From Vicinamibacterales bacterium (GTDB taxonomy: Bacteria; Acidobacteriota; Vicinamibacteria; Vicinamibacterales; UBA8438), in contig CBDBMW010000013.1 of NCBI GenBank assembly GCA_965207595.1, positions 503,497 through 567,496 on the forward strand: a stretch of DNA of 64,000 nt, written 5' to 3'. The notes beneath the pieces were generated by a model. That model saw only the letters and a list, made by a program, of their open reading frames with translations. It did not search any database and was not told where the DNA came from. A program made the translations under genes and the position numbers. Shown here piece by piece: positions 11,865-60,212 of the stretch (the stretch's first letter is position 1; every line of letters starts with the position of its first letter).

Positions 11865-14414
11865 TTACTGCCCGGCCACCACAACCGTGGCCGGCGCGTC
11901 CGGCGCCGGCCGCTTCTGCTTCATCCGGAACACGTCGCTCGTGACGACGGCGTCGACGAGGGCCGAGAACCGGTAGTCCTCGGCGGCCGCGGCGCGCACG
12001 ATGCGGCGGACAGCCGGTGCGTCGTAATACTCCATGCCGCGGCCGGCCGCGTAGGTCAGCAGCTTCCGCGTGAACGTCTCGACGAACGACTCGGGCCGCC
12101 GCAGGATGGCCTCCCGGAGCTCGCTCGGCCCCTCGAACGCCGTGCCGTCCGGCAGCACGTCCGACGCGTCGATCGGCTCGCCGCCGCTGCTGCTGCGCCA
12201 GCGGCCGATGGCGTCGAAGTTCTCGAGGCCGAAGCCGTAGGGGTCCATCTGCGCGTGGCAGGCGGCGCAGGCCGGGTTCGCCCGGTGCTGCTCCAGGCGC
12301 GCCCGGATGGAGAGGCCCTCGGCGCTCCCGCTGTCCTCGAGGTCCGGCACGTCCGGCGGCGGCGGGGGAGGCGGCGACCCGAGGAGGTTCTCGAGAATCC
12401 ACTTGCCCCGCAGCACGGGCGACGTGCGGGTGGCGTACGACGTGACCGTCAGCAGGCTGCCGTGGCCCAGGATGCCGCGGCGCGCGTCGTCGGTCACGGC
12501 CACGCGGCGGAAGCGGTCGCCGTAGATGCCGGGAATGCCGTAGTGGCGCGCCAGGCGCTCGTTGAGGAACGTGTAGTCGGCGGTCAGCAGCTCGAGGATG
12601 CTGCGGTCCTCGGCCATCACGCTCCCGAAGAAGAGCTCGGTCTCCCGCTGCAGGGCGCGGCGCAGGTTGTCGTCGAAGTCGGGGAACGTGGGCGGGTCCG
12701 GATGGGTGTTGGCGAGGTTGCGCAGGTAGAGCCACTGGCCGGCGAAGTTCTCGACCAGGGCCGACGCGCGCGGGTCGGCGAGCATGCGCCGCACCTGCCG
12801 CCGCAGCTCGTCCGGCGCGCCGAGCTCGCCGCGCTCGGCCACCGCGAGCAGCTCGTCGTCCGGGATGCTGCTCCAGAGGAAGAACGACAGCCGCGAGGCG
12901 AGGTCGAGGTCCGACACCGGGTAGACGGCACCGGCTGCCAGGTCGCTGGGTTCGGTCTCCAGCCGGAAGATGAACTGCGGGCTCGCGAGCAGGAAGCGCA
13001 GGGCGAGCTCGATGCCGGACTCGAAGCCGCCGTCGCGGCTTCCCTGCTCGTAGAACGCGAGGAGGCGGTCGAGCTCCGGCGCCTCGAGCGGGCGGCGGTA
13101 GGCTTGCCGGCCCAGACGCGACAGGATCGAGCGGGCGCATGCTGCGGCGTCGCCGGGGGCGGCATCGCCCGGTGCGGCGGCGTCGGGCGCAGCATCGTTC
13201 AACGGCATCTCCGGGCGGCAGGTGAAGATGCGCTGCCGGCTCGGGGTGTCGTCGGGGCGCCGCGGGTCGAAGGGGCCGGCGATGAGCACGCTGTCGACGT
13301 CGGGCAGGCCCCGCCGGCTGTTGGACGCGACGTAGCTCCGCAGGAACGGCTTCCGGGTCTCCTCGGAGAGTGCGGCCGGCTTGCCGACGAAGGCGGCGAC
13401 GATCTCGTGGCGTCCGGCCGGGATCGGCAGCCGCACCCGCATCCCCTCGTCCGCCGTGAAGGCCCGGCTGACGGTCTGGCCCGGGTTCTGCTCGTTCACC
13501 ACGAGAGCCGTGTACGCGTCCTCGCTGCCGATGGGGAACAGCCCGACGCGCTCGCCGTCGAGGGTCAGCTCCAGGTGGTGTTCCTCGCCGATGCCGCGAA
13601 TGGTGCCGACGGCGGTCCGGCGCAGCCGCACGCGGATCTCGTACTCGGCGTCGACCGGGAAGTGCTCCGCGACGCGGATGCCGCCGCGGGTGCCGAGCGG
13701 CAACTCGCGCAGGTGGTAGTCCTGCGTGAGGTCCTCGGGCGTCTTGTAGGTCGTCGTAACGGTCGGGATGACGGGGCTCCCGACCGCGAGACGGCTGATC
13801 TTGCGCGCCGTCGTGACGTAGCTCTCGAGCAGCAGGGGCGATACGCCCAGAGCATCGGCGATGTTGTCGAAGCCGAACGTCGAGTCGTCCGCCGGCAGCG
13901 CGCTCACGTCCGCGTCCAGCGCCAGCAGGTCGCGGACGGCGTTGCGGTACTCGGCGCGGTTCATCCGGTGGAGCTGCGGCCGGCCGGGGTTCGGCGCCGC
14001 CTCGGCCGCCCGGTCGAGCGAGGTCTCCAGCCACGAGGCGAACGCCCGGTAGGAGTCGTCGTCGGGGCGCGGGCGCCGGGGGGGCGGCATCGTCCGGCTG
14101 CGAAGCTTCTGGACCACCTTCTCCCAGAGCTCCGCGTCGGCGGCGACGTGGGCCTCGCTGACCTCCACGTCGTCGAGCGACAACCCCGCCGTCAGCAGCC
14201 GGCCGTTGTGGCAGGTGACGCAGTAGCGACCGATGAGCGCGCCGTACTCGGCGGCCTCGGCCGACGCGGCGGATTCGATCGACGTGGTGGGCGCCACGCC
14301 GGTCGCGGCAGCCGCGGCGACGCCGGTCACCTGCCCGATGGCGACGCCCGAGAGCAGGCCGCTGGCCGCCATTGCCAGCACGAGAATGAGCCCGGCGTGC
14401 CGTCTGGTCTTCAT
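11865..14414 (-). CDS. DUF1592/DUF1585/DUF1587/DUF1588/DUF1595 (PSD/PSCyt) family protein with CxxCH motif, copy 1
   Basis: 849 aa from MKTRRHAGLILVLAMAASG (signal peptide). Motifs: YCVTCHNGRLLTAGLSLDD, MPPPRRPRP, HRMNRAEYRNAVRDLL, FLWSSIPDDELL and CAACHAQMDPYGFGLENFDAIGRWR. The stop lies 40 nt upstream of the DUF1552 start. Confidence 0.85.
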   Translation of the reverse strand: MKTRRHAGLILVLAMAASGLLSGVAIGQVTGVAAAAATGVAPTTSIESAASAEAAEYGALIGRYCVTCHNGRLLTAGLSLDDVEVSEAHVAADAELWEKVVQKLRSRTMPPPRRPRPDDDSYRAFASWLETSLDRAAEAAPNPGRPQLHRMNRAEYRNAVRDLLALDADVSALPADDSTFGFDNIADALGVSPLLLESYVTTARKISRLAVGSPVIPTVTTTYKTPEDLTQDYHLRELPLGTRGGIRVAEHFPVDAEYEIRVRLRRTAVGTIRGIGEEHHLELTLDGERVGLFPIGSEDAYTALVVNEQNPGQTVSRAFTADEGMRVRLPIPAGRHEIVAAFVGKPAALSEETRKPFLRSYVASNSRRGLPDVDSVLIAGPFDPRRPDDTPSRQRIFTCRPEMPLNDAAPDAAAPGDAAPGDAAACARSILSRLGRQAYRRPLEAPELDRLLAFYEQGSRDGGFESGIELALRFLLASPQFIFRLETEPSDLAAGAVYPVSDLDLASRLSFFLWSSIPDDELLAVAERGELGAPDELRRQVRRMLADPRASALVENFAGQWLYLRNLANTHPDPPTFPDFDDNLRRALQRETELFFGSVMAEDRSILELLTADYTFLNERLARHYGIPGIYGDRFRRVAVTDDARRGILGHGSLLTVTSYATRTSPVLRGKWILENLLGSPPPPPPPDVPDLEDSGSAEGLSIRARLEQHRANPACAACHAQMDPYGFGLENFDAIGRWRSSSGGEPIDASDVLPDGTAFEGPSELREAILRRPESFVETFTRKLLTYAAGRGMEYYDAPAVRRIVRAAAAEDYRFSALVDAVVTSDVFRMKQKRPAPDAPATVVVAGQ

Positions 14415-14484
14415 GCGAAAAGCCCCCGTAGTTCCGCCGTCCGTTGCTGCCCGATCGACCGTCCGCGGCTGCGGGCGCAGACTC

Positions 14485-16026
14485 CTAGCGCTGGTCGGCC
14501 GGCACGGTGCGGCCATCCGGCGTCGCCACGGCACCGAGGCTGCGGAGCAGCTCGGCGGCGCTGTCGCGCCGGATGACGCTGGCGATCTGGTTGAAGCCCT
14601 GCTCCGCGAGGTCCAGCGCACTCCGGTCCAGCTCGTCCTCGAAGTCGGTGCGCGCGCCCGCCCCGACGAGATGTCCGATGATCGTGTTGGCGGCCCGGTA
14701 GACGGCGCCGTGGAGCGCCGTCTGTCCGTTGGCGTTGCTCGCGTTCACGTCGACGCCCGCGGCCAGCGCCAGCTTGACGGCTTCGAGCGCGTCCTTCTCG
14801 GCGCGGAAGCGCCGCGAGCCCTCGATATGGCCGACCCCGGACGCCATCATGACCGCCGTGTTGTTGGCATAGGTCGCCAGCCGCGGATCGGCGCCGAGCG
14901 CAGCCAGCTCGCGCATCGCCTCGACGTCGGCGCCCTGCGCGGCCAGGATGTACGGCGTCGCCCCGCCCAGGTTGACGCCGTTGTCCATGTACGGCCGCCC
15001 GGCGCTGAAGATGCCCTCGTCGGTCCACCGTTCGTGGCGTATCGGGGTCGGCTCGGTCCGCGCGTTGGGGTCGGCCCCGCGGGCGACGAGCATCCGCATC
15101 AGCTCCAGGCTGTCGAGCTGCGTCGGGTCGACGCCGTAGGAGTCGACGAACTGGTTGGCCAGATGGCGCTGGGGCGAGCGGCGCTGCACCAGGTTGTGGA
15201 GGATGCCGTTCCCCTGCGCGTCGCGCGCGTCGGGGTCGGCACCGGCCTCCAGCAGCACGGCGGCCATCGTGTAGTGGCCGTTCGTCACCGCCATGCTCAG
15301 CAGGCTCGGGCCGGGGACGGCGGGCTGCGCGGCTCTGCGCGCACCCGGCAGATGCACGTTCACGTCGGCGCCGGCGGCGATCAGCAGCCGCGCCGCGTCG
15401 TGCGCGTCCTGCCGCACCGCGAACATGAGCGCGTTGAAGCCGCCCGTCGACGGCGTGTCGACGGCGGCACCGTTCTCGAGCAGCACGTTCAGGATCGGCG
15501 CGTGATTCTCCGCCGCGGCCCACATGAGCGAGGTCTGGCCCCGCCACGTGTCCGCTGCGTCCACGCTCGCGCCGTAGCGCAGCAGGGCCCGCAACGCGGC
15601 GACGCGGCCGGTCCGCGCGCAGCCGAGGATCGGCGGCTCTCCGTTCGGCGCCAGGCTCGGATCCGCGCCCGCTTCGAGCAACCCCTCGAGCAGGGCCGGG
15701 TTGGCGTTGGTGCACGCAAGGGCGAGGGGCGTCGCGCCGTTCCGGTTCTCGGCGTTGGGGTCGGCGCCCGCGTCCAGCAGCAGGCTCGCCAGCTCCGCGT
15801 CGTCGGCATACGCCGCCCAGTGGAGCGCCGTGGTGCCGTCGACCCCGGGGGAATCGACGTCCACGTCGCCCGCGGCGAGCAGGCCCGCCACTCCCGCCCG
15901 ATCCCCGGAGCGCGCCAGCTCCGGCAGGCGCGCGTCGGGCTCCGCGGCCGAGAGCACGCCCCCGGCCATGAGAAACATGAGGAAGAGGAGGAGGATCGGC
16001 GACGCGAGCCCTTGTCGGTGCTGCAT
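14485..16026 (-). CDS. Secreted ankyrin-repeat protein, copy 1
   Basis: 513 aa from MQHRQGLASPILLLFLMFLMAGGVLSA (signal peptide), with about 10 or more ankyrin repeats (DGTTALHWAAYADDAELASLLLDAGADPN ...). It lies 70 nt upstream of the DUF1592 gene on the same strand. Confidence 0.85.
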   Translation of the reverse strand: MQHRQGLASPILLLFLMFLMAGGVLSAAEPDARLPELARSGDRAGVAGLLAAGDVDVDSPGVDGTTALHWAAYADDAELASLLLDAGADPNAENRNGATPLALACTNANPALLEGLLEAGADPSLAPNGEPPILGCARTGRVAALRALLRYGASVDAADTWRGQTSLMWAAAENHAPILNVLLENGAAVDTPSTGGFNALMFAVRQDAHDAARLLIAAGADVNVHLPGARRAAQPAVPGPSLLSMAVTNGHYTMAAVLLEAGADPDARDAQGNGILHNLVQRRSPQRHLANQFVDSYGVDPTQLDSLELMRMLVARGADPNARTEPTPIRHERWTDEGIFSAGRPYMDNGVNLGGATPYILAAQGADVEAMRELAALGADPRLATYANNTAVMMASGVGHIEGSRRFRAEKDALEAVKLALAAGVDVNASNANGQTALHGAVYRAANTIIGHLVGAGARTDFEDELDRSALDLAEQGFNQIASVIRRDSAAELLRSLGAVATPDGRTVPADQR

Positions 16027-16207: not shown

Positions 16208-16278
16208 GCCGCAGCCTCCGCGTCGCTGCCGCGGCCTCCGCGTTGTTCGCTGCCGCGGCCTCCGCGTTCGCTGCCGCC
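16208..16278. repeat. Tandem 21-24-nt direct repeats (cgctgccgcggcctccgcgtt, about 2.5-3 copies) just upstream of the padR-family promoter
   Basis: Units lie at 16224-16244 (+gtt), 16248-16268 and partially at 16269-16278, with a degenerate copy at 16208-16223. The array ends about 12 nt before the TTGACA at 16290. Confidence 0.7.
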
Positions 16279-16289
16279 GGGGGTTCCAT

Positions 16290-16326: not shown

Positions 16327-16674
16327 ATGGCAAATAGAGACCCTTCCAGGACGGAGGTCCTGCGCGGCACGCTCGACCTGATGGTGCTGCAGGCTCTGGT
16401 CGTGCTCGGGCCGTCGCACGGCTACGCGATCGCGGGCCGGCTCGAGCAGGTGTCCGACGGCGCCCTCGTCCTCAACATGGGCACCCTCTATCCCGGCCTG
16501 ATGCGGCTGGAGCAGCGCGGGCTCATCAGCGCGGAGTGGGGCACGACGGGGAACAACCGCCGCGCCCGGTTCTACGCCGTCACTGCGGCCGGCCGGAGCC
16601 ATCTGGCGGCGGAGAAGCGCAGCCTGGACCGCATGGTGTCGATCATCGACGCCCTGTTCGAGGAGCCGGCGTGA
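16327..16674 (+). CDS. PadR-family transcriptional regulator
   Basis: 115 aa. LRGTLDLMVLQAL..GPSHGYAI....EQVSDGALVLNMGTLYPGLMRLEQRGLISAEWG......RARFYAVT is the typical PadR winged-helix pattern. It sits directly upstream of the ADOP permeases, a known pairing. Confidence 0.9.
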   Translation: MANRDPSRTEVLRGTLDLMVLQALVVLGPSHGYAIAGRLEQVSDGALVLNMGTLYPGLMRLEQRGLISAEWGTTGNNRRARFYAVTAAGRSHLAAEKRSLDRMVSIIDALFEEPA

Positions 16675-16787: not shown

Positions 16788-19454
16788 ATGGCTGTCCTGC
16801 GCGAGTTCTGGCGTCGTTTCCGGGGCGTGCTCCGGCGCAACGCAGCCGATCACGATCTGGAGCGCGAGTTGCGCTTTCATCTCGAGCTGGCCGAGGAAGA
16901 GCTCCGCCGGCAGGGCCACTCGCGGGCCGAGGCCGCGCGGCTGGCGCGCGTGCGTCTGGGCGGAGTGCCGCAGGCCCTGGAGGCGCTGCGCGACCAGCGC
17001 GGGCTGCCGTGGCTCGACGACCTCCGGTCCGATGCTCGTGTCGCCGCTCGAACGCTGCTGCGGTCCCCCGGGTTCTCGCTCACCGCTCTCCTGACCCTGG
17101 CGGTCGGCATGAGCGCGACCACCCTCGCGTTGACGGCCGTCAACGCCGTGCTGCTCAAGCCGCTCCCGGTCCGAGCCCCCGATCGGGTCGTGGGCATCAC
17201 GGCCGTCGGAGAGCTGGCGGTCCTTCGCAACGAACCGGTGGGATACGGCGACTACGCCGATCTCGCCCGTGACGTCGCCGCGTTCGAATCCGTGGTCGCC
17301 CACCGCCGCATGGGAGCGGTGGTCGGCACCGGACTGGACCGCAGGATCGCGATCGGCGAAGAGGCCTCGCCCGACTACTTCACCACGCTCGGCGTGTCGT
17401 TCCCGCTCGGTCGCCCGTTCGACGAAGGCGACCCGCCGGGTGGGGTGGTCGTTCTGGGTCACGCCGCGTGGCGCCGGCACTTCGGGGCCGATCCCCGGAT
17501 TGTCGGCCGGGAGCTGGCGATCGGCGATCGGCGGCGCACGGTCATCGGGATTGCCCCGGAGGGGTTCACCGGGCTGTTCCGCGGGGTCGCACCGGAGTTC
17601 TGGCAGCCGCTCGACGACGCCGGCGGCGAGTCGGCCGACGACCGCGGGCAACCGGAGTGGTGGGTGCACGCCCGGTTGCGGGACGGCGCGACGGTCGAGC
17701 AGGCTCGCACGCAGGTTGCCGTCCTGGCCGATGCGCTCTCCCGGCGATATCCGCAGTCGAACGCCGATCGCACCCTGGCGCTCACGCCGCTGTCGGAGGC
17801 GTCCGTTCACCCCGTCGTGTCGAGGGCCCTGGCCCGGTTCGGAGCCGCCGGCGTCCTCGCGGTCGCGCTGCTCCTGCTGCTGGTCTGCGCGGTCAACGTC
17901 GCGCACCTCGTGCTCGCCCGGGCCGTCGACGGCCAGCGCGAGGTCGCCATCCGACTGGCGGTGGGAGCCAATCGCTGGCGGATCGTTCGTCCGTTGCTCG
18001 CCGAGGGCATCCTGCTCACGGGCTTCGCGGCGGCCGGCGCGTTGCTCCTGACCGCGTGGGTCGGGCCGCTGCTCGGCGAGATCCGACTGCCGGGGGTGCC
18101 GGCCGCCATCGATCTTCACCTGGTGCCCGACTGGCGCGTCTTCGGCCTCACGGCGATCGTCGTCCTCGGGTCGACCCTGGTCTCCTCGCTCGGGCCGGCG
18201 TTGCGGATCTCGTCGGGCCTCTCCATCGTCGAGACGCTCAAGACCGACTCGCGCGCATCCGCGGCCGGCGGAGCCACGAGGTGGCGCATGCTGCTGATTG
18301 CCGGCCAGGCCACGACCGCGGTGCTGCTGCTGGTGGTCGGCGGCCTCGCGCTGCGCAGCCTTCTCACCGTGGTGCAGGTCGACCCCGGCTTCGAGACGCG
18401 CGGCGTCGCGGTCGCGAGCGTCGCCCCGGCGCTGGTCGGCCACGACCAGGACGAGGCGTCCCGCTACCTGTCGCGCGCGGCCGCCGCCGTCCGGGAGCTT
18501 CCCGACGTCGAGGCCGCGGGGTGGATTCAGCCGGTCCCCCTGTCGCTGAGCGTTCGACTCGCCCGACTGCGCCTGACCGGAGACGACAGCGCGGCAGCGC
18601 ACGATCTTCCGCTCGTCGACGCCGGGATAGCCGGTCCCGGCGCCTTCGGAGCGCTTCGGGTGCCGGTGATCGAAGGGCGCGAGTTCGACGCCGCGGACCG
18701 CTCGGGCGCGGTCGAGGTCGCGCTCGTGAACGACGCGTTCGTCCGCCGCTTCTGGCCCGACCGGCAGGCCCTCGGCCGGCGCATCGGGGTGGGCTTTCCG
18801 GAGACTCGGACCGTGGAGGTCGTGGGCGTGGTGGGCGATTTCCGGAACCGCACGCTCGGGGACGTCGCGCGACCCATGGTGTTCACGTCGATCCTGCAGG
18901 ACCCGTCGGGTTGGCAGGCCGCGGCGCTGGTCGTGCGACGGTCGCCCGCCGGTCCGCCGCGGATGGTGCATCTCGTCGACGCGCTGCGCGCGATCGATCC
19001 GGCGGTGCCCGTGTACGACGTGCAGCCGCTCACCGCGCGCATCGGCGGCGTCCTCCTGTTGCCCCGGTATGCCGCGGCGGCCTTTGGCGGGACCGGCGTT
19101 CTCGCGCTGGGACTGGTCGTGCTCGCACTGTATGGAACCGTATCGCTGTCCGTCAGGCTCCGGCTGCGCGAGCTGAGCGTGCGCATGGCGCTCGGCAGCT
19201 CCCGGACGGCCATCGTGCGGCTGGTCATGCGGCAGGCCCTCGTGCCGGTCGTGGCCGGCGTCGGGCTCGGCCTGGTCGCGGCGCTGGGGGCGGCCCGTGT
19301 CCTGACCGCGCTGCTCTACGGCGTGTCACCCCACGACCCCGCCACGCTGGCGGCGGCCGCCCTCACGCTGTTGGCGACGACGACGGCGGCCGGCGCGTAT
19401 CCCGCGTGGCGCGCCACGCGCACGAACCTCATGCGCTCGCTCCAGGGCGAATGA
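16788..19454 (+). CDS. ADOP-family permease with N-terminal 'permease prefix' extension
   Basis: 888 aa. The N-terminus MAVLREFWRRFRGVLRR...LERELRFHLELAEEELRRQGHS is followed by two FtsX-like modules. Confidence 0.85.
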   Translation: MAVLREFWRRFRGVLRRNAADHDLERELRFHLELAEEELRRQGHSRAEAARLARVRLGGVPQALEALRDQRGLPWLDDLRSDARVAARTLLRSPGFSLTALLTLAVGMSATTLALTAVNAVLLKPLPVRAPDRVVGITAVGELAVLRNEPVGYGDYADLARDVAAFESVVAHRRMGAVVGTGLDRRIAIGEEASPDYFTTLGVSFPLGRPFDEGDPPGGVVVLGHAAWRRHFGADPRIVGRELAIGDRRRTVIGIAPEGFTGLFRGVAPEFWQPLDDAGGESADDRGQPEWWVHARLRDGATVEQARTQVAVLADALSRRYPQSNADRTLALTPLSEASVHPVVSRALARFGAAGVLAVALLLLLVCAVNVAHLVLARAVDGQREVAIRLAVGANRWRIVRPLLAEGILLTGFAAAGALLLTAWVGPLLGEIRLPGVPAAIDLHLVPDWRVFGLTAIVVLGSTLVSSLGPALRISSGLSIVETLKTDSRASAAGGATRWRMLLIAGQATTAVLLLVVGGLALRSLLTVVQVDPGFETRGVAVASVAPALVGHDQDEASRYLSRAAAAVRELPDVEAAGWIQPVPLSLSVRLARLRLTGDDSAAAHDLPLVDAGIAGPGAFGALRVPVIEGREFDAADRSGAVEVALVNDAFVRRFWPDRQALGRRIGVGFPETRTVEVVGVVGDFRNRTLGDVARPMVFTSILQDPSGWQAAALVVRRSPAGPPRMVHLVDALRAIDPAVPVYDVQPLTARIGGVLLLPRYAAAAFGGTGVLALGLVVLALYGTVSLSVRLRLRELSVRMALGSSRTAIVRLVMRQALVPVVAGVGLGLVAALGAARVLTALLYGVSPHDPATLAAAALTLLATTTAAGAYPAWRATRTNLMRSLQGE

Positions 19455-19479: not shown

Positions 19480-22179
19480 ATGGCTGTCCTGCGCGAGTTC
19501 TGGCGTCGCTTCCGGGGCGTGCTCCGGCGCGACCCGGCCGACCAGGATCTCGAGCGCGAGCTGCGCTTTCATCTGGAACTGGCCGAGGAGGAGCTCCGCG
19601 GGCAGGGCCACTCGCGGGCCGAGGCCGCGCGGATGGCGCGGGTGCGCCTGGGCGGCGTTCCGCAGGCGCTGGAGGCGCTGCGCGACCAGCGCGGGCTGCC
19701 GTGGCTCGACGACCTGCGCACGGATGTCCGCATCGGCGCGCGCGGGCTGGCCCGGCGGCCCGGATTCACGGCGGCGGCGGCGCTGACGCTGGCGATCGGC
19801 ATCGGCGCCACGGCCGCGGTGGCCGCCGTTGCGAACAGCCTGCTCTTCGAGCCGCTGCCGGTGCCCGACCCGGACGAGCTCGTCATCGTCGCGCAACTCG
19901 ACGAGCACAGCGCCGAGTTCCCGCACGCCCTGTCCTATCCCGAGTACCTCGACTACCGGGAGCGCAGCGACGTCCTCGACGGTCTGGCCGCACACACCGC
20001 GGCGGAGGAGCTCCTGTCGATAGGCGGCCGGGCGGCGGAGCGCGTCTGGATCGAGTACGTCAGCGACAACTACTTCGACGTCCTGCAGGTGGAGGCGGAG
20101 CGTGGCCGCACGTTCCGGCCGGGTGAGGGACGCCGCCCCGGCGACGCGCCATTCGTCGTGTTGTCGCACGAAGCCTGGCGGACGCGGTTCGGAGGCGATC
20201 CGGCCGTCGTCGGTCAGGCCGTGCGCCTCGGACCGGCCAGCATGACGGTCATCGGGGTCGCCCCGGAGCCTTTCGTCGGAACGTACGGCCTGGTACCGAT
20301 AGAGGTTTTCGTCCTCGCCACCGAGGGCGCGCTCATCGAGCCGGGGTGGACGGATCTCCTGACCAACCGCCTGGCGGAGTCCTTCGTGCTGACGGGACGC
20401 CTGCGGCCCGGCGTCTCCGTAGGCGAGGCGGCCGCGCAGCTCGACGTCCTGGCCGACGCGCAGGCCGCAGAGCACCCGGACGCCAGCCGCCACTCCCGGC
20501 TCTACGTCGTTTCGGAGCGTCAGGGGCGACCCTTCCCGGGCGCGTCGCGCCACACGGCGCCGCTCATGACCGTCGTGATGGGCCTGGCGTCGCTCGTGCT
20601 GCTCATCGCCGTCGCCAACGTCGGGACGCTCATGGTGGGGCGCGGCATCGCGCGCCGGCGCGAGATCGCCCTGCGTACGGCCCTGGGGGCGACCCGGCGC
20701 CGGCTCATGCGCCAGTTGGTCACCGAGAGCCTGCTCCTGGCGCTCATGGGGGGAGCGGGCGGCGGGCTGGTCGCGGTCTGGGCGGCGGACCTCTTCGTCG
20801 CAGGGGCTGCCTCCGCCGCGGGGATCGAGCGGCTGCTGGTCGACCCGACGATCGACTGGCGGGTGTTCGGATTCACGGCCGCCGCCGCGCTCGCGACCGG
20901 CGTGCTGACCGGCCTCGCGCCGGCGTTGCGCTCGACGCGGATCGACCCGGCCCGCACCGTCGGCGGGGGCGGTCGCGGCGAGGGTGCGGGTGCTCCCGAG
21001 CGCCGTCTCACGAACGGGCTCGTCGTGGTGCAGATCGCCGTCTCGATGGTGCTCCTGGTCTGCGCCGGACTCTTCGTGCAGAGCGGCCGGAACGCCGGCG
21101 CGATCGACGTCGGGTTCCGGACCGACGACCTGCTGGTGCTCACGGTCGACCCGCTCGCACAGGGGTACGACCCGCCACGGGCCCGTGCGCTGTTCCAGCG
21201 GATCGCCGCCGACGTCGGCGCTCTGCCCGGAATCCGGTCGGCGAGTTGGGCGCGCCGGGCGCCGGTGGCGCGGGGCAGCAGCTCGGGGAGCGTGGGCACC
21301 CTGGACGGCGGTACCGCGCCCGAGCCCGACCGGGCCATCGTCGCCGTCAACCACGTCGATCCGGGCTTCTTCGAGACCGTCGGCATTCCGCTGATCCGCG
21401 GGCGTGGTTTCCGGGAGGACGACGCGGCCGGCGACCGGCGGGTGGCGGTCGTCAGCGAACGCGCGGCGCGGCAGTTCTGGCCGGGCGAGGACGCGGTCGG
21501 CCGGCGCATCGTCAACCCGGAAACGGGAGGGACACCGTTCGAGGTCGTTGGCGTCGCGCGCGACGCGCACATGTCGCAGTCACCCTTCGACCGGCCGCCC
21601 TTCGTTCTGTACCCCTTCGGGCCCCGGCTGGCGGGCCCGGCGACCCTGCACGTGCACGCCGACGGGCCGCCGGCCGTCGTGTCGGCCATGGTCGCCGAGG
21701 TGGTGCGTCGCCACGACCCGACGCTGGCGCTCCTGGATGCCGGCAGCATGGACGCCGAGGTGCGCTCGATGCCGATGCTGGTGAGCACGCGCGTCGGCGC
21801 GGCCGCGATCGGGGCCTTCGGGATGCTCGGCCTGCTTCTTGCCGTCGTGGGACTCTACGGCGTCGTGTCGCACGCGGTGGTCCGACGGCGCCACGAGTTC
21901 GGCATCCGCACCGCGGTCGGCGCGACCCCGGCCGCGATCCTCAGGCTCGCGCTCGGCCGCGGCATCGCGCTCACGCTGCTCGGCGTGGGGGTCGGAGCGA
22001 TCGCAGCGACCGGTGCGGCGAGGCTCGTTGCCGGCTTTCTCGTCGACGTCGGGCCGGACGAGCCCGTCGTCTTCGCCGTCGTGGGCTTCCTGCTGGCGGG
22101 CACGGCTCTGGCCGCCTGTCTCGTGCCGTCCCGCCGCGCCGCGAAGGCCGACCCGCTCGCGACCCTGCGCGAGGGTTAG
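19480..22179 (+). CDS. ADOP-family permease with N-terminal 'permease prefix' extension (tandem paralog)
   Basis: 899 aa. The first ~95 aa are near-identical to the preceding gene, and the remainder is much more diverged. Confidence 0.85.
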   Translation: MAVLREFWRRFRGVLRRDPADQDLERELRFHLELAEEELRGQGHSRAEAARMARVRLGGVPQALEALRDQRGLPWLDDLRTDVRIGARGLARRPGFTAAAALTLAIGIGATAAVAAVANSLLFEPLPVPDPDELVIVAQLDEHSAEFPHALSYPEYLDYRERSDVLDGLAAHTAAEELLSIGGRAAERVWIEYVSDNYFDVLQVEAERGRTFRPGEGRRPGDAPFVVLSHEAWRTRFGGDPAVVGQAVRLGPASMTVIGVAPEPFVGTYGLVPIEVFVLATEGALIEPGWTDLLTNRLAESFVLTGRLRPGVSVGEAAAQLDVLADAQAAEHPDASRHSRLYVVSERQGRPFPGASRHTAPLMTVVMGLASLVLLIAVANVGTLMVGRGIARRREIALRTALGATRRRLMRQLVTESLLLALMGGAGGGLVAVWAADLFVAGAASAAGIERLLVDPTIDWRVFGFTAAAALATGVLTGLAPALRSTRIDPARTVGGGGRGEGAGAPERRLTNGLVVVQIAVSMVLLVCAGLFVQSGRNAGAIDVGFRTDDLLVLTVDPLAQGYDPPRARALFQRIAADVGALPGIRSASWARRAPVARGSSSGSVGTLDGGTAPEPDRAIVAVNHVDPGFFETVGIPLIRGRGFREDDAAGDRRVAVVSERAARQFWPGEDAVGRRIVNPETGGTPFEVVGVARDAHMSQSPFDRPPFVLYPFGPRLAGPATLHVHADGPPAVVSAMVAEVVRRHDPTLALLDAGSMDAEVRSMPMLVSTRVGAAAIGAFGMLGLLLAVVGLYGVVSHAVVRRRHEFGIRTAVGATPAAILRLALGRGIALTLLGVGVGAIAATGAARLVAGFLVDVGPDEPVVFAVVGFLLAGTALAACLVPSRRAAKADPLATLREG

Positions 22180-22392
22180 CCCGACTTGCTACGCAGGCGG
22201 GAAGGTCGAGCGCTCCCGGTCGGGAAGAGTGGAGGTGCCGTGCGGCCGAGATCATGTGGTCGCGGTCATCCCGATCCGCGATCCGGGACCGGAGGAAGAC
22301 GCGGCCGGACGTGCACTTGGGTGGTGGCGTTCGTTCTCCCACCAAAACCGCGCCTTCATCTGTGGCCTCAACGACCTCGTGAGGCCAAAGAT

Positions 22393-22425
22393 GACACGAG
22401 TTTCGTGTGCCACTATCTTCGTGTC
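22393..22425 (+). promoter_or_regulatory. Candidate antitoxin operator/promoter: three GACACGA/TCGTGTC half-sites flanking a TATCTT -10-like hexamer
   Basis: GACACGA at 22393-22399, TCGTGT at 22403-22408 (inverted, 3-nt gap), TATCTT at 22414-22419, and TCGTGTC at 22419-22425 abutting the ATG at 22426. Confidence 0.45.
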
Positions 22426-22830
22426 ATGAAGAACGTCACCGTAACGCTGCCGGAGGAGACGGCGCTGTGGCTGCGGGTCCGGGCCGCGGAGGCGAACCGT
22501 AGTGTGTCGAGCTGGCTGGCGGAGGTCGTTGAAGGGATGAAGCGCCGCGAGGACGACTATCGGGTCGCGATGTCGCGCGCGCTCGCGAGGAAGCCACGGA
22601 AGATGGCGTGGGTCGATGGCCGGAAGCCGACCCGGGAGGAGCTACATGACCGGGCCGGTCTTCGTCGACACCAGCGTCCTGGTCTACCGGGCCGATGCGT
22701 CGGATCCCGTCAGACAGTCCCGCGCCGACGCCTGGTACCGGTTCCTTTGGCGATCGCGAGCCGGCACGTAAGCTATGACCGTAATCCGATATGGCATACT
22801 GCCAAGATGACGACCATGGTCCCCGAGTAG
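22426..22830 (+). CDS. Ribbon-helix-helix (VapB-like) antitoxin; 3' end probably aberrant
   Basis: MKNVTVTLPEETALWLRVRAAEANRSVSSWLAEVV is a typical RHH N-terminus, followed by ...PTREELHDR. The frame runs on to 22830 across the truncated toxin and into lower-GC DNA, so roughly the last 60 codons are unlikely to be native. Confidence 0.6.
   Translation: MKNVTVTLPEETALWLRVRAAEANRSVSSWLAEVVEGMKRREDDYRVAMSRALARKPRKMAWVDGRKPTREELHDRAGLRRHQRPGLPGRCVGSRQTVPRRRLVPVPLAIASRHVSYDRNPIWHTAKMTTMVPE
22646..22771 (+). pseudogene. Truncated PIN-domain (VapC-like) toxin remnant, 41 codons
   Basis: MTGPVFVDTSVLVYRADASDPVRQSRADAWYRFLW matches a PIN N-terminus (first acidic residue in FVDTSV). It stops at TAA 22769-22771, whereas an intact PIN domain is about 130 aa. 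GC drops immediately afterwards. Confidence 0.65.
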
Positions 22831-22953
22831 CTCCCGCGACCAGATCGTCTAATGCCCTGTGTGAGGCGGTGGCATGCTCACGGAGGTCGAGATGGCCGAG
22901 GCGGCGTATGCCGAAGCATCGAGAAACGAACGTGCTCCGACGGGTGTCAGGTG

Positions 22954-23184
22954 ATGGAAGCGGACTGGCCAACGATTGCCGTACTGGTTGCGATTGGGGG
23001 GCTGTTGTGGCGTCAGATCGCATCACAAGGCGTCGATATCCGGGCGTTGGCCGGGCGCGTCGATGCGCTCGGTCTTCAGGTAGCCGATGTGGATCGTCGA
23101 CTGGCTCGTCTGGAAGGCTGGATTGAGGGCGAGCGAGCGGGTCGCGCTCACCAGGGCCCAGTGCCTGGTGATCAGGAAGCCTGA
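22954..23184 (+). CDS. Small N-terminally membrane-anchored coiled-coil protein (hypothetical)
   Basis: 76 aa: MEADWPTIAVLVAIGGLLWRQI (TM) then IRALAGRVDALGLQVADVDRRLARLEGWIEG (heptad-like). The architecture resembles the protein at 51751-52083. The gene lies in the lower-GC island. Confidence 0.4.
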   Translation: MEADWPTIAVLVAIGGLLWRQIASQGVDIRALAGRVDALGLQVADVDRRLARLEGWIEGERAGRAHQGPVPGDQEA

Positions 23185-23379
23185 ACGGGCGGCGCGAGCC
23201 GCCTGAGACTCTGACGCGTCGTCGACCGCAGGCGTCGGTCAGGAGCGCACGACGACGATTCGCCGTGCCAGGTACGCACTACGTGGTAGGGCGGCCCATC
23301 CGGACTTCCGGCCCCGACCGGTCCTCCTGAGGGTCCGCGCCTCCCGCTGGGAGGCGGCTCCGCTCGACGGCGCAGTCTC

Positions 23380-26013
23380 CTACGGCCCGTCGGCCCCGAC
23401 CGCGTCCGGCGCGTCCGGCGCGTCCGGCGCGTCCGGCGCCGGCCGCTTCACCTTCATCCGGAACACGTCGCTCGTGACGACGCCGTCGACGAGGGCCGAG
23501 AACCGGTAGTCGTCCTCGGCCGCGGCGCGCACGATGCGGCGGACGGCCGGTGCGTCGTAATACTCCATGCCGCGGCCCGCCGCGTAGGTCAGCAGCTTCC
23601 GCGTGAACGTCTCGACGAACGACTCGGGCCGCCGCAGGATGGCCTCCCGGAGCTCGCCCGGCCCGTTGAACGCCGTGCCGTCCGGCAGCACGTCCGAGGC
23701 GTCGATCGGCTCGCCGCGGGGACCGCTGGCGCGCCAGCGCCCGATGGCGTCGAAGTTCTCGAGGCCGAAGCCGTAGGGGTCCATGCGGGCATGGCAGGCG
23801 GCGCACGCCGGGTTCGCCCGGTGCTGCTCCAGGCGCTCCCGGATGGAGAGGCCCTCGGCGCTGCCCGTGTCCTCGAGGTCCGGCACGTCCGGTGGCGGCG
23901 GGGGAGGAGGCGACCCGAGGAGGTTCTCGAGAATCCACTTGCCCCGCAGCACGGGCGACGTGCGGGTCGCGTAGGAGGTAACCGTCAGCAGGCTGCCGTG
24001 GCCCAGAATGCCGCGCCGCGCGTCGTCGGTCACCGCCACGCGGCGGAAGCGGTCGCCGTAGATGCCGGGGATGCCGTAGTGGCGCGCCAGCCGCTCGTTG
24101 AGGAACGTGTAGTCGGCGGTCAGCAGCTCGAGGATGCTGCGGTCCTCGGCCATGACGCTCCCGAAGAAGAGCTCCGTCTCCCGTTGCAGCGCCCGCCGCA
24201 GGTTGTCGTCGAAGTCGGGGAACGTGGGCGGGTCCGGATGGGTGTTGGCGAGGTTTCGCAGGTAGAGCCACTGGCCGGCGAAGTTCTCGACCAGGGCCGA
24301 CGCGCGCGGGTCGGCCAGCATGCGCCGCACCTGCCGCCGCAGCTCGTCCGGCGCGCCGAGCTCGCCGCGCTCGGCGACCGCGAGCAGCTCGTCGTCGGGG
24401 ATGCTGCTCCAGAGGAAGAACGACAGCCGCGAGGCGAGGTCGAGGTCCGACACTGGGTAGACGGCGCCGGCGGCCAGGTCGCTGGGCTCGGTCTCGAGGC
24501 GGAAGATGAACTGCGGGCTCGCGAGCAGGTAGCGCAGGGCGAGCTCGATACCGGACTCGAAGCCGCCGTCACGGCTGCCTGCCTCGAAGAACCCGAGGAG
24601 GCGGTCGAGCTCCGGCGCCTCCAGCGGGCGGCGGTAGGCTTGCCGGCCCAGACGCGACAGGATGGAGCGCGCGCACGCTGCGGCGTCGCCGCGGGCGGCA
24701 GAGCCCGGCGCGGCGTCGCCGGGGGCCGCATTGCGAGGTGCGGCATCGCCGGGCGCGGCGTCGCCGGGCGCAGCATCGTCCAACGACATCTCCGGGCGGC
24801 AGGTGAAGATGCGCTGCCGGCTCGGCGTGTCGTCGGGGCGCCGCGGGTCGAAGGGGCCGGCGACGAGCACGCTGTCGACGTCGGGCAGGCCCCGCCGGCT
24901 GTTGGACGAGACGTAGCTCCGCAGGAACGGCTTCGCGGTCTCCTCGGACAGCACGGTCGGCTTGCCGACGAAGGCGGCGACGATCTCGTGGCGCCCGGCC
25001 GGGATCGGCAGCCGTACCCGCATCCCCTCGTCCGCCGTGAACGCCCGGCTCACCGTCTGGCCCGGATTCTGCTCGTTGATCACCGTCGGCCGGTAGGCGT
25101 CCTCGCTGCCGACGGGGAACAGCCCGATGCGCTCGCCGTCGAGGGTCAGCTCCAGGTGGTGCTCCTCGCCGATGCCGCGAATGGTGCCTCCCGCCGTGCG
25201 CCGGAGCCGCACGCGAATCTCGTATTCCGCGTCGACGGGGAAGTGCTCCGCGACGCGGATGCCCCCGCGGGTGCCGAGCGGCAGCTCGCGCAGGTGGTAG
25301 TCCTGCGTGAGGTCCTCGGGCGTCTTGTAGGTGGTCGTCACGGTCGGGATGACGGGGCTCCCGACCGCGAGACGGCTGATCTTGCGCGCCGTCGTGACAT
25401 AGCTCTCAAGCAGCAGGGGCGAGACGCCCAGAGCATCGGCGATGTTGTCGAAGCCGAACGTCGAGTCGTCCGCCGGCAGCGCGCTCACGTCCGCGTCCAG
25501 CGCCAGCAGGTCGCGGACGGCGTTGCGGTACTCGGCGCGGTTCATGCGGTGGAGCTGCGGCCGCCCGGGGTTGGGAGCGGCGTCGGCCGCCCGGTCGAGC
25601 GAGGTCTCCAGCCACGTGGCGAACGCCCGATAGCTGTCGTCGTCCGGCCGCGGACGACGGGGCGGCGGCATGGTCCGGCTGCGGAGCTTCTGGACCACCT
25701 TCTCCCAGAGCTCCGCGTCGGCGGCGACGTGCGCCTCGCTGACCTCCACGTCGTCGAGCGACAACCCCGCCGTCAGCAGCCGGCCGTTGTGGCAGGTGAC
25801 GCAGTAGCGCCGGAGCAGCGTGCGGTACTCGGCCGCCTCGACCGACGCGGCCGCCGCGCCGGCGGTCGCGGGAGCCGCCGCTGGCGCACTGCCGGTCGCG
25901 GGAGCCGCGGCGCCGCCCACCGGCCCCTGCGCCGCGGCCACGCCGGTGAGCAGGCCGCCGGCAACCTTGGCCAGCACGAGAGCACCGATGAGCGCGTGCC
26001 GTCTGATCGTCAT
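23380..26013 (-). CDS. DUF1592/PSD-PSCyt family protein with CxxCH motif, copy 2 (no DUF1552 partner downstream)
   Basis: 877 aa from MTIRRHALIGALVLAKVAGG. About 95% identical to copy 1 apart from the signal peptide, an expanded AAPGD linker and a (PDA)n C-terminal tail. Confidence 0.85.
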   Translation of the reverse strand: MTIRRHALIGALVLAKVAGGLLTGVAAAQGPVGGAAAPATGSAPAAAPATAGAAAASVEAAEYRTLLRRYCVTCHNGRLLTAGLSLDDVEVSEAHVAADAELWEKVVQKLRSRTMPPPRRPRPDDDSYRAFATWLETSLDRAADAAPNPGRPQLHRMNRAEYRNAVRDLLALDADVSALPADDSTFGFDNIADALGVSPLLLESYVTTARKISRLAVGSPVIPTVTTTYKTPEDLTQDYHLRELPLGTRGGIRVAEHFPVDAEYEIRVRLRRTAGGTIRGIGEEHHLELTLDGERIGLFPVGSEDAYRPTVINEQNPGQTVSRAFTADEGMRVRLPIPAGRHEIVAAFVGKPTVLSEETAKPFLRSYVSSNSRRGLPDVDSVLVAGPFDPRRPDDTPSRQRIFTCRPEMSLDDAAPGDAAPGDAAPRNAAPGDAAPGSAARGDAAACARSILSRLGRQAYRRPLEAPELDRLLGFFEAGSRDGGFESGIELALRYLLASPQFIFRLETEPSDLAAGAVYPVSDLDLASRLSFFLWSSIPDDELLAVAERGELGAPDELRRQVRRMLADPRASALVENFAGQWLYLRNLANTHPDPPTFPDFDDNLRRALQRETELFFGSVMAEDRSILELLTADYTFLNERLARHYGIPGIYGDRFRRVAVTDDARRGILGHGSLLTVTSYATRTSPVLRGKWILENLLGSPPPPPPPDVPDLEDTGSAEGLSIRERLEQHRANPACAACHARMDPYGFGLENFDAIGRWRASGPRGEPIDASDVLPDGTAFNGPGELREAILRRPESFVETFTRKLLTYAAGRGMEYYDAPAVRRIVRAAAEDDYRFSALVDGVVTSDVFRMKVKRPAPDAPDAPDAPDAVGADGP
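23402..23437. repeat. Tandem 9-nt repeat (gcgtccggc x4) encoding (PDA)n at the C-terminus of DUF1592 copy 2
   Basis: Four perfect 9-nt units. Copy 1 has a single unit at the equivalent site (about 11890-11905). Confidence 0.85.
24678..24775. repeat. Imperfect 15-nt tandem repeat encoding an (AAPGD)n linker in DUF1592 copy 2
   Basis: Protein DDAAPGDAAPGDAAPRNAAPGDAAPGSAARGDAAACAR in copy 2 compares with the shorter NDAAPDAAAPGDAAPGDAAACAR in copy 1 (DNA about 13141-13195). Confidence 0.8.
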
Positions 26014-26182
26014 CGAGAGCCTCCGTTCTTCCGCCGTCCCACGTCTCTTCCGCCGACCCACGTCGCCCGCTCCGCCCGGGCTTCTTCGCGGGCGCGGTCT
26101 TCGACGACCTCGCGCCGAGCCCCAGGTTCCCATCGCGTCAACCGACAGCCGCCGGAACGTGCACGGTGCGGACCTGCATCGC

Positions 26183-27676
26183 TCACGGCGACGCTTCGGC
26201 GGACGCGGCGGGCCGCGACGAGACGGCGCCGAGCTCGCGCAGCAGGGCGGCGGAGCGGTCGCGGCGGATGACGCTGGCGGCCTGGTTGAAGCCCTGCTCG
26301 GCCAGGTCGAGCGGCGTGCGGTCGAGCTCGTCCGCGAGGTCGGTCCGGGCGCCGGCGGCGATGAGGTGCCGGATGACGCTGTCGGCGGCGCGGTAGACGG
26401 CGCCGTGCAGCGCGGTCTGCCCGTGGGCGTTCGCGCCGTCGATGTCCACGCCGTGCGCCAGGGCCAGCTCGACCGCGGCCAGGATGTCGGGCTCCGGCCG
26501 CTGGAGGCGCAGGCCCTCGGTGAAGACGACGCCGGCCGCGAGGGTGAGCGCGGTGTTGTTGGCGTAGGTAGCCAGCCGCGGGTCGGCCCCGTGCTCGGCC
26601 AGGAGCCGCATCGCCTCGTGGTCGGCGCCTCGGGCGGCCGCGGCGTAGGGCGTGGCGCCGCCCATGTTGACCTGGTTGTCGATCGCGGGGCGACCACCGG
26701 CCTGCGCGCGCGCGTCCGTCAACCGCGGCCGCGGCTCGGTCCGCGCGTTGGGGTCGGCTCCGGCCTCGAGCAGCAGGCGCATCAGGTCCAGGCTCTCCGT
26801 CGCGTGCAGGGCGGCGCCTTCGGAGACCGCGGCCGGTACCTGGGGCCGCCGCTGCAGCCCTCGCGCCGCCACCAGGTCGTGGAGCGCGGTGTTGCCCTGC
26901 GAGTCGCGGGCGGTCGGATCGGCGCCGCGCGCGAGCAGCAGCGTCGCCAGGGGATAGTGCCGGTTGGTGATCGCCATCCGCAGGAGGCTCTGCCCGTTCG
27001 GCGCTCGCGCGTCGAGGTCCGCGCCGGCCGCGAGGAGCAGCCGCGCCGCGTCGCGGGCGTCCTGGCGGACGGCGAACATCAGGGCGGTGAAGCCTCCCGT
27101 CGAGGCGGCGTCCACCGCGGCGCCTCCCTCGAGCAGCACGTTCATGACCGGCACGTGGTTCTCGGCCGCCGCCCACATCAGCGGAGTCTGGCCGCGCCAC
27201 GTGTCCGCCGCGTCGAGGTCCGCGCCGCGGGACAGGAGCGCCCGCACCGCCGCCACGTCTCCCGTGCGCGCGCAGGTCAGCAGCGGCGCCTCGCCCCGGG
27301 GAGCGAGTCCGGGGTCGGCCCCGGCGTCGAGCAGCACCGTCACCAGCGCCGCGCCGGCGCCCCCGCAGGCGAGCCCGAGCGGCGTTGCGCCGTTGCGGTT
27401 GACGACGTCGGGATCCGCGCCCGCGTCGAGCAGCGCCTCCGCCAGCTCGGCGTCATCCCGGTAGACGGCCCAGTGGAGCGCCGTCGTGCCGTCGACCGCC
27501 GCCGCGTCGACTTCGACCGCCTCGGCGAGCAGGCGTGCGACCGCCTCCCGATCGCCGGCCCGCGCCGCATCAGGCAGCCGGGAGTCGTTTGCCGCCACGG
27601 CGAACAGTGGGGCGGCCTGCACGAGAGAGAAGAGAAGGGCGGCAAAGCACGCCGCCCCCCGTCGTCGAAGCACCAT
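26183..27676 (-). CDS. Secreted ankyrin-repeat protein, copy 2
   Basis: 497 aa from MVLRRRGAACFAALLFSLVQAAPLFAVA (signal peptide), with ankyrin repeats throughout. Roughly 60% identical by eye to copy 1, with a shared C-terminal LDLAEQGFNQ.ASVIRRD motif. Confidence 0.85.
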   Translation of the reverse strand: MVLRRRGAACFAALLFSLVQAAPLFAVAANDSRLPDAARAGDREAVARLLAEAVEVDAAAVDGTTALHWAVYRDDAELAEALLDAGADPDVVNRNGATPLGLACGGAGAALVTVLLDAGADPGLAPRGEAPLLTCARTGDVAAVRALLSRGADLDAADTWRGQTPLMWAAAENHVPVMNVLLEGGAAVDAASTGGFTALMFAVRQDARDAARLLLAAGADLDARAPNGQSLLRMAITNRHYPLATLLLARGADPTARDSQGNTALHDLVAARGLQRRPQVPAAVSEGAALHATESLDLMRLLLEAGADPNARTEPRPRLTDARAQAGGRPAIDNQVNMGGATPYAAAARGADHEAMRLLAEHGADPRLATYANNTALTLAAGVVFTEGLRLQRPEPDILAAVELALAHGVDIDGANAHGQTALHGAVYRAADSVIRHLIAAGARTDLADELDRTPLDLAEQGFNQAASVIRRDRSAALLRELGAVSSRPAASAEASP

Positions 27677-59997: not shown

Positions 59998-60043
59998 GCG
60001 GCCGCGGCCCGGCGGCGCCTGTCCGACCCTCCGATCCTTGCTG

Positions 60044-60212
60044 CTCCCCGAGGCCGAGCGCGCCTTGCCGGCGGCGGGTCGATGCCCTCGTAGACGGCAG
60101 CGCCGCTCCCTTGCCACTCCCCGAGGCCGAGCGTGCCTTGCCGGCGGCGGGTCGATGCCCTCGCAGACCGCAGCGCCGCCTCGCTTCCTGAGGCCGAGCG
60201 CGCCTTGCCGGC
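60044..60212. repeat. Tandem direct repeat, unit about 70 bp, about 2.4 copies
   Basis: Units start at 60044, 60117 and about 60187 (ctccccgaggccgagcgYgccttgccggcggcgggtcgatgccctcg...). The array lies between the recD2 stop and the AT-richer RBS region of the next gene. Confidence 0.85.

Follow-up and report, generated by a model that had tools for sequence, protein, structure and literature searches.

How did two neighboring genes come to encode nearly the same protein, when the genes just upstream of them are much more diverged? We met this question in a stretch of 64,000 nucleotides from a Vicinamibacterales bacterium of the phylum Acidobacteriota (GenBank assembly GCA_965207595.1, contig CBDBMW010000013.1, positions 503,497 to 567,496), which we will call the window. 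On its minus strand, about 9 kb apart and in the same orientation, are two genes of the DUF1592 family, which we will call copy 1 and copy 2. Each lies downstream of an ankyrin-repeat gene. We consider it quite likely that recurrent gene conversion, combined with strong purifying selection, has kept these two genes alike, but not along their whole length (partial concerted evolution). The genes in question are:

10484-11824, minus strand: gene for a DUF1552 (HXXSHH) partner protein with a twin-arginine leader (Pfam E = 3.4e-96); it lies downstream of copy 1, and copy 2 has no such neighbor
11865-14414, minus strand: DUF1592-family gene, copy 1 (849 amino acids; third-position GC 0.92-0.98), followed by its DUF1552 partner
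14485-16026, minus strand: ank1, an ankyrin-repeat gene (Pfam Ank domains), upstream of copy 1
23380-26013, minus strand: DUF1592-family gene, copy 2 (877 amino acids), an intact open reading frame (ORF) with the domain set of copy 1, without a DUF1552 partner
26183-27598, minus strand: ank2, an ankyrin-repeat gene (Pfam Ank domains), upstream of copy 2

Two similar proteins in different settings

Because the window is ~73% GC (guanine plus cytosine), long spurious ORFs are common, so we set the reading frames by third-position GC. This was 0.90-0.98 over the coding part of the frames at 11865-14621 and 23380-26697 (minus strand). The likely start codons are at 14414 for copy 1 (MKTRRH) and at 26013 for copy 2 (MTIRRH).

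The DUF1592 family is marked by a set of six Pfam domains, PF07631 with PF07627, PF07624, PF07626, PF07637, and PF07635. Both copies contain all six, in the usual order and above the gathering cut-offs: PSD4 (169 bits), PSCyt3 (126-129 bits), PSD2 (89-91 bits), PSD3 (76 bits), PSD5 (70-72 bits), and PSCyt1 (28-29 bits). Both copies also have two motifs for the attachment of heme c (CXXCH), namely CVTCH and CAACH, and the corresponding columns (C71, C74, H75, C737, C740, and H741) are invariant in an alignment of 63 homologs. Both begin with a signal-like sequence. Given these features of their sequences, we predict that copies 1 and 2 are exported diheme c-type cytochromes of the "planctomycete-specific" PSD/PSCyt family.

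The first-pass annotation of this DNA reported that copy 2 has no DUF1552 partner, and tblastn against the window bears this out: the only matches to DUF1552 were at 10487-11824 and 36787-38130, and neither is near copy 2. The missing neighbor is a feature of the gene's context and is no bar to its membership in the family.

The second of those matches belongs to a third DUF1592-DUF1552 pair, at 36787-40484 on the minus strand. DUF1552 is thus adjacent to copy 1 (10484-11824) and to copy 3 (36787-38130), but not to copy 2. The third cassette has ~55% protein identity to the first, its silent sites are saturated, and nothing suggests that it has exchanged sequence with copies 1 and 2. Its DUF1592 protein (copy 3) has PSD4, PSCyt3, PSD2, PSD3, and PSD5 above the cut-offs, while PSCyt1 scores 19.2 bits, below the 22-bit cut-off.

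In a global alignment, copies 1 and 2 are 92.2% identical at the protein level. Over a core of 741 codons, which excludes the signal peptide and a repetitive linker, identity is ~95%, as the first-pass annotation had estimated. Self-comparison of the DNA gave 90.4% identity between 11891-14442 and 23424-26039. This strong likeness runs from ~30 nt 5' of the start codon to ~26-44 nt short of the stop. In contrast, the upstream ankyrin genes are 71.6% identical at the DNA level (14520-15937 versus 26215-27587) and 65% identical in protein, which is somewhat above the ~60% of the annotation. The signal peptides differ, as had been noticed: over the first 50 codons, nonsynonymous divergence (dN) is 0.30 and synonymous divergence (dS) is 0.32.

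The annotation also drew attention to a block (ASPQFIF...DVPDLED) in which the two proteins are identical over 218 amino acids. We found the same block, and its coordinates, given as ~12335-12985 and ~23872-24525, need only slight adjustment:

12333-12986, minus strand: 218-aa identical block of copy 1, which covers the greater part of PSD4 (DUF1592) and extends into the beginning of PSCyt3 (DUF1588)
23869-24522, minus strand: 218-aa identical block of copy 2, encoding the same protein sequence

The nucleotide differences within the block number 27 in 654 nt, instead of about 20 as counted by eye. All 27 are at codon position 3, all are synonymous as the annotation had stated, and none are nonsynonymous. 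If both classes of sites changed equally, then 27/27 synonymous changes would arise by chance with a probability of ~0.27^27, or roughly 1e-15. The reported switch of a serine codon is a wobble change within the TCN family (TCG/TCC) and not a switch between TCN and AGY. The strings given as examples, at 12437 and 23973, differ by Val GTC/GTT, Thr ACG/ACC, and Ser TCG/TCC.

Both copies also contain short repeats. A 15-nt tandem repeat encodes (GDAAP)n in the linker before PSD5, with 3.6 units in copy 1 (13144-13197) and 6.6 units in copy 2 (24680-24778), and it is of a different length in each copy of each genome. In copy 2 only, the C-terminal tail is extended by a perfect repeat of 9 nt at 23401-23439 (4.3 units, encoding PDA).

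Related genomes share both cassettes

Neither of the two window proteins has an exact match in the public gene index. The nearest public loci are from metagenome-assembled genomes of Vicinamibacterales (Acidobacteriota). Four related assemblies, from three ENA samples and on contigs that range from 89 kb to 6.2 Mb, share the layout with two cassettes. We will refer to them as A (L081/L082), B (L083), C (L084), and D (L085), and to the window as W. The common layout begins with an unknown gene, ank2, copy 2, and a variable slot. These are followed, on the other strand, by one or more MacB permease genes with a PadR gene, and then by ank1, copy 1, and DUF1552. (In D, copy 1 reaches the end of the locus, and any DUF1552 gene would be outside it.) In three related genomes, the DUF1552 orthologs have 97-99% protein identity.

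Since four relatives have the same two-cassette layout, the duplication predates their divergence. Copy 2 lacks a DUF1552 neighbor in all five genomes. The orphan state of copy 2 is old and stable, and it is neither a recent accident nor an assembly artifact.

Silent sites and the ankyrin genes

At fourfold-degenerate sites, copies 1 and 2 differ by 0.167, versus 0.484 for ank1 and ank2. The DUF1592 copies differ from the third cassette by 0.447-0.467 at these sites, and for DUF1552 the difference from the third cassette is 0.486.

We also compared third-position distances across genomes. For the ankyrin genes, the distance is 0.085-0.20 between orthologs and ~0.40 between paralogs, whether these are in the same genome or in different genomes. 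For instance, ank1 of the window is at a distance of 0.41 from ank2 and of 0.15-0.17 from its own orthologs. This is the pattern of an old, undisturbed duplication. For DUF1592, the distances are 0.125-0.218 between orthologs and 0.139-0.189 between paralogs within a genome. Judged in this way, the DUF1592 pair seems much younger than the genes beside it, even though both copies predate the split of the five genomes. Because paralogs are about as distant as orthologs across the whole gene, the homogenization is partial.

Within the 218-aa block, dS between the window's copies is 0.18, which is about that between the closest species. Similarly, the third-position silent divergence of the window's copies (~0.10-0.14) is about that between orthologs of the closest relatives. 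This implies that the last homogenization of the block is old, in line with the guess made in the first-pass annotation.

The similarity of the copies is a mosaic

We tested for exchange between the copies with counts of quartet sites, with runs tests, with a Sawyer-type permutation test of the longest run, and with bootstrapped trees of separate regions. For each pair of genomes, a quartet site may group the four sequences by genome (G), by copy as expected from orthology (O), or crosswise, which represents homoplasy noise (X). The counts for DUF1592 were:

W and C: G 59, O 39, X 13; p(G > X) = 2e-8
W and A: G 37, O 62, X 9; p(G > X) = 2e-5
W and B: G 29, O 42, X 15; p(G > X) = 0.02
B and C: G 37, O 43, X 12; p(G > X) = 2e-4
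A and C: G 38, O 43, X 17; p(G > X) = 0.003
A and B: G 13, O 58, X 16; not significant

Sites that group by genome are in significant excess over noise in 5/6 pairs (p from 2e-8 to 0.02). The ankyrin genes, compared in all ten genome pairs, have 0-4 genome-type sites, 1-7 noise sites, and 281-323 orthology sites. As the ankyrin pair has no excess of genome-type sites, parallel shifts in codon usage across the genome are excluded as the cause.

Along the DUF1592 gene, O sites and G sites occur in clusters (runs tests, p = 0.0001-0.003). The longest-run test was significant for W (p = 0.048), B (p = 0.038), and C (p = 0.0002), and not for A. O sites are found from the signal peptide to heme motif 1, in a central island (alignment columns ~255-372), in a spot past heme motif 2, and in the tail. 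Elsewhere, G sites prevail.

Regional neighbor-joining trees, with 300 bootstraps each, conflict in the same way (W1 and W2, or C1 and C2, are the two copies of one genome):

Central island: copy-2 clade 300/300, W1+W2 0/300, C1+C2 0/300
218-aa block: copy-2 clade 0/300, W1+W2 185/300, C1+C2 272/300
Left flank: copy-2 clade 0/300, W1+W2 211/300, C1+C2 31/300
Right flank: copy-2 clade 1/300, W1+W2 173/300, C1+C2 9/300

In the island, the copy-1 sequences (with L001) also form a clade, in 259/300 bootstraps. In the block, the copy-1 clade is found in 0/300.

Individual sites point to exchange as well. Across genomes, the 27 silent differences within the block comprise 10 that are private to one window copy, 15 that are mixed toggles between G and C, and 2 that are crosswise, so 0/27 are copy-specific. 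At one codon in the block, both window copies have Ser AGC, while the other sequences have GAC, GAA, GCC, or CAG; AGC is two nucleotide changes away from GAC, the commonest of these. A second such codon, ~40 codons upstream of the block, is Leu CTC in W1 and W2 and ATC in all other sequences. Transfer from one copy to the other, within the lineage of the window, is the best explanation for these two shared codons. Genome C has 21 lineage-private sites that are shared by both of its copies.

Both copies are under strong constraint, and a few residues stay different

Across the 741-codon core, orthologs of copy 1 have a dN/dS of 0.064-0.120, and orthologs of copy 2 have one of 0.068-0.117. Constraint is strong and of equal degree in the two genes, and copy 2 is not in decay.

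As for the 218-aa block, other pairs of paralogs or orthologs have 6-10.8 nonsynonymous differences alongside 19.5-41 synonymous ones, and the window's pair has 0 alongside 27. Outside the island, there is nothing unusual about the ratio for the window's pair (~66 synonymous differences and ~24 nonsynonymous ones). We give little weight to the zero in the block as a sign of excess constraint.

Between the two types of copy, 22 nucleotide differences are fixed across the five genomes. Of these, 16 are nonsynonymous and 6 are synonymous, versus 118 nonsynonymous and 322 synonymous among the unfixed differences (odds ratio 7.3, p = 1.7e-5). The fixed differences cluster at residues 67-68, 275, 301, 308-312, 353-354, 369, and 764-766 of copy 2. 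The segments that remain distinct are:

13326-13622, minus strand: putative conversion-resistant central island of copy 1 (residues 265-363), with 17/22 of the fixed nucleotide differences
24907-25203, minus strand: the corresponding island of copy 2 (residues 271-369), within a predicted beta-sandwich
14229-14414, minus strand: signal peptide of copy 1 and the residues before heme motif 1, not homogenized, with copy-specific residues (I/L, G/Q-R) at 61-62
25810-26013, minus strand: signal peptide of copy 2 and the residues before heme motif 1, not homogenized
12183-12188, minus strand: copy-specific spot past heme motif 2 in copy 1 (SSSG-G, a one-codon indel relative to copy 2)
23716-23724, minus strand: copy-specific spot past heme motif 2 in copy 2 (SGPRG)

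In the island, the copies differ (copy 1 versus copy 2) by V/I versus G, I versus V, TAL versus RPT, V versus I, AA versus TV, and A versus S. At residues ~330-420, silent divergence between the copies is just 0.02-0.07 in the window and in A, yet the copy-specific amino acids are retained. This pattern is most simply read as conversion that erases neutral differences and selection that keeps the few residues that distinguish the copies. In other words, the copy-specific residues are probably preserved by selection.

The first-pass annotation had named two alternatives, namely that both copies are under strong purifying selection, or that gene conversion took place longer ago and silent drift came after it. 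The dN/dS ratios agree with the first, and the second agrees both with the grouping of paralogs by genome outside the islands and with a silent divergence far below that of the ankyrin pair, so our results support the two acting together. The conversion tract ends that were proposed lie near the switch to orthology-type sites, at roughly alignment columns 72 and 874. The annotation also argued that copy 2 is not a dead duplicate, and we agree: the ORF is intact over 877 amino acids, it encodes all of the domains, and its dN/dS is in the range of copy 1's. A dN/dS near 1 outside the block was named as a result that would count against constraint. In windows along the gene, we found ratios near 1 only in the signal peptide, in the C-terminal tail, and in two short windows with copy-specific residues, and not across the gene, so the claim stands.

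Probable partial concerted evolution and its alternatives

The explanation that we favor, with good confidence, is partial concerted evolution of the DUF1592 pair, by recurrent gene conversion under strong purifying selection. We propose that the copies are old paralogs in two neighboring cassettes (ank1-DUF1592-DUF1552 and ank2-DUF1592). Recurrent intrachromosomal gene conversion (non-reciprocal homologous recombination) would repeatedly replace the greater part of one ORF by the sequence of the other. Between conversions, purifying selection would act on both copies, so that only silent wobble changes would build up in the PSD4/PSCyt3 block. The signal peptide and the residues before heme motif 1, a stretch of ~100 residues in the putative sandwich, and the spot past heme motif 2 would escape homogenization in every genome examined. 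As the differences in these segments are mostly amino-acid-changing, selection likely removes convertants in which copy-specific residues have been erased.

Several points weigh against this explanation. One pair of genomes, A and B, shows no significant excess of genome-type sites. The bootstrap support for W1+W2 is moderate in each region (58-70%). At ~73% GC, third positions have almost two states (G or C), so homoplasy is high, with 9-17 noise sites per quartet. The boundaries of the island that were used for counts inside and outside of it were drawn post hoc, which does not affect the runs test. The absence of nonsynonymous differences from the block, where ~7 would be expected, has p ~0.002, but this is inflated because the block was chosen post hoc as the longest identical run. 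All of the genomes that we compared are metagenome assemblies. Finally, a gap in the outgroup L002, described next, raises the possibility that copy 2 is a younger duplicate of the gene alone, which would weaken the comparison with the ankyrin genes as proof of conversion, since it bears on how much of that contrast conversion accounts for. The evidence for exchange from clustering by genome would not be affected.

In L002 (OZ220728.1, 1030-13890), the unknown gene, ank2 (90% identical), and MacB are in the same order, with a 67-bp gap in place of copy 2, and L002 has just one cassette of the type ank1-DUF1592-DUF1552. Copy 2 may have been lost in L002, or it may have originated later, when the gene alone was copied to its place after ank2. 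The second possibility leads to the strongest of the alternatives. A single, younger duplication of the gene alone, later than the ankyrin duplication and next to ank2 in an ancestor that the five genomes share, might have been followed by plain divergence and no later conversion. The order of genes in L002 fits this history, as do the confinement of the high DNA similarity to the ORF and the lack of DUF1552 beside copy 2 in five genomes. Also, the neighbor-joining tree of the island is divided over L002, placing it with copy 1 in 158/300 bootstraps and outside both copies in 118/300. The amino acid states are mixed. But plain divergence predicts that orthology-type sites are spread evenly and that genome-type sites are at the level of noise. 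We observed a 2- to 4.5-fold excess of genome-type sites, and both types are clustered. The conflict among the region trees, the lineage-private substitutions shared by both copies in W, and the 21 such sites in C all argue against it too. Furthermore, a young copy 2 is compatible with later conversion, so this alternative mainly concerns the age of the pair. We think that a younger duplication without conversion is unlikely.

Purifying selection alone, acting on an old duplication with extreme constraint on the protein and no exchange, is more doubtful still. It is true that the orthologs are 88-95% identical in protein, with dN/dS of ~0.07-0.12, and that in all pairs constraint is strongest in the 218-aa block (dN/dS of 0.04-0.10). 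However, constraint on the protein leaves silent sites free to change, and it does not explain why the fourfold difference is so much lower than for ankyrin genes with the same codon bias. Nor would selection group paralogs by genome outside the islands, as the excess of genome-type sites and the region trees do. It also leaves unexplained why none of the silent differences within the block are copy-specific and why the codons Ser AGC and Leu CTC are private to the window's two copies.

Errors in metagenome assembly or binning (collapsed or chimeric repeats, or cross-polishing, which can affect paralogs that are ~90% identical) are a concern for sequences that are all metagenome-assembled, but they are very unlikely to be the cause, as the window's copies differ at ~10% of nucleotides and have different flanking contexts, the two-cassette synteny recurs in the four other assemblies, the differences in the island are identical in five genomes, unlike random chimerism, and the adjacent ankyrin paralogs are cleanly orthologous.

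Predicted structure and possible function

A sequence search of the PDB found no related solved structure. The AlphaFold model of copy 2 has a mean pLDDT (predicted local distance difference test) of 74.9 and a pTM (predicted template modeling score) of 0.75. The model consists of helical domains and a beta-sandwich at residues ~225-391, and most of the fixed copy-specific residues fall within this predicted sandwich. Foldseek searches with the model found no match with E <= 0.001. Weaker matches (E ~3e-3 to 1e-2) suggest a likeness of the beta-sandwich to CBM35/CBM6, which we take as a lead and not as a classification.

It is possible, but improbable on present evidence, that the need of both copies to cooperate with one and the same DUF1552 protein, encoded after copy 1, keeps most of each protein exchangeable for the other. 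The PSD4/PSCyt3 block would then be the shared interface, and about a dozen residues, in the CBM-like sandwich and near both heme motifs, would be under selection for different specificities towards substrates or partners.

The slot downstream of copy 2 and other nearby features

The slot after copy 2 varies among the five genomes:

A and D (L081:12578-13954 and L085:12562-13938): gene for a 458-aa Pyr_redox_2 oxidoreductase
B (L083:12527-13561): intact PIN toxin gene
C: nothing
Window (22426-22771, plus strand): RHH antitoxin gene (22426-22660) and a truncated PIN gene (22616-22771, 51 aa)

The window's antitoxin has a weak match to FitA-like RHH proteins (E = 0.0017). The truncated PIN gene corresponds to residues 1-56 of the intact PIN of B (73% identity by tblastn), and the DNA is 94% identical over 373 nt. 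With tblastn, we found no remnant of DUF1552 or of Pyr_redox_2 downstream of copy 2 in the window; only the truncated PIN gene is there. GC content falls to 0.69 in the slot (22180-23380).

Just after the stop codon of copy 2, the sequence 'GGAGACTGC' resembles the ribosome-binding region of the DUF1552 gene that follows copy 1. We considered whether this might be the scar of a deletion. We rejected this reading because the stop codon and the codons before it are orthologous to copy 2 of A and D, and the sequence downstream in A and D is unrelated. The resemblance is probably due to chance.

Between the cassettes, on the plus strand, two tandem genes for permeases of the MacB/FtsX type (16788-19454 and 19480-22179) lie behind a PadR gene (16327-16674). 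The relatives carry one or two such permease genes. The first ~380 nt of the window's permease genes are 81% identical (16788-17170 versus 19480-19862), and the remainder does not align at the DNA level. This 5' likeness may reflect another local conversion or a shared N-terminal module. A 24-nt tandem repeat (~3 units, of which the inner two are identical) is found at 16208-16279, between the start of ank1 and the PadR gene.

Elsewhere in the window, the 5' part of ank2 (27162-27556) has 70% DNA identity to 44763-45160, on the opposite strand, which is probably part of another ankyrin-repeat gene. The self-comparison also showed short direct or tandem repeats at 60036-60145 versus 60109-60212 (86%) and at 61318-61398 versus 61390-61470 (76%).

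Relation to known systems and implications

Concerted evolution by gene conversion is known in bacteria from tufA/tufB, from rRNA operons, and from a limited number of other prokaryotic genes (Wang & Chen 2018, PMC6053082), and the kinetics of conversion have been described for the tuf genes (PMC5485169). As in those systems, the DUF1592 paralogs are closer than the age of their duplication implies, they group by genome, they contain mosaic tracts, and both copies appear to be functional and constrained. Unlike those systems, homogenization of the DUF1592 pair is incomplete, and the same short segments are copy-specific in every genome examined. The genes also differ in kind, being PSD/PSCyt-family genes of uncultured Vicinamibacterales.

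Gene conversion that is opposed by selection at key residues is familiar from the primate red and green opsins, RHD/RHCE, and globin pairs. Likewise, silent sites and most others of the DUF1592 pair are homogenized while a few amino acid differences persist, which gives the excess of nonsynonymous changes among fixed differences (16:6 versus 118:322). In contrast to those pairs, the DUF1592 locus is bacterial and has no introns, and here we infer the selection against convertants.

The PSD and PSCyt domains were first defined in Rhodopirellula baltica, and PSCyt3 genes, whose family is of unknown function, usually adjoin DUF1552 genes (He et al. 2017, PMC5615132). Our genes resemble these "planctomycete-specific" cytochrome genes in their set of domains (PSCyt1, PSD3, PSD5, PSD4, PSCyt3, PSD2), and copies 1 and 3 are directly upstream of DUF1552. 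They differ in that copy 2 is a stable orphan in five genomes and in belonging to the Acidobacteriota instead of the PVC (Planctomycetes-Verrucomicrobia-Chlamydiae) group. Overall, the example is new and the process is known: this is an ordinary, well-behaved case that changes no concept.

For the PSD/PSCyt family, these results have several implications. Copy 2, the orphan without DUF1552, has persisted for long under constraint and is no duplicate in decay. Whole-gene trees of the family will mix paralogs, which calls for caution in phylogeny and in the calling of orthologs. The residues that seem to resist conversion point to functional differences between the two proteins, and they give a short list of sites that probably determine specificity in this widespread family. 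If both copies do share a DUF1552 protein, then the joint action of conversion and selection would outline the surface that determines specificity in a large family without a known function.

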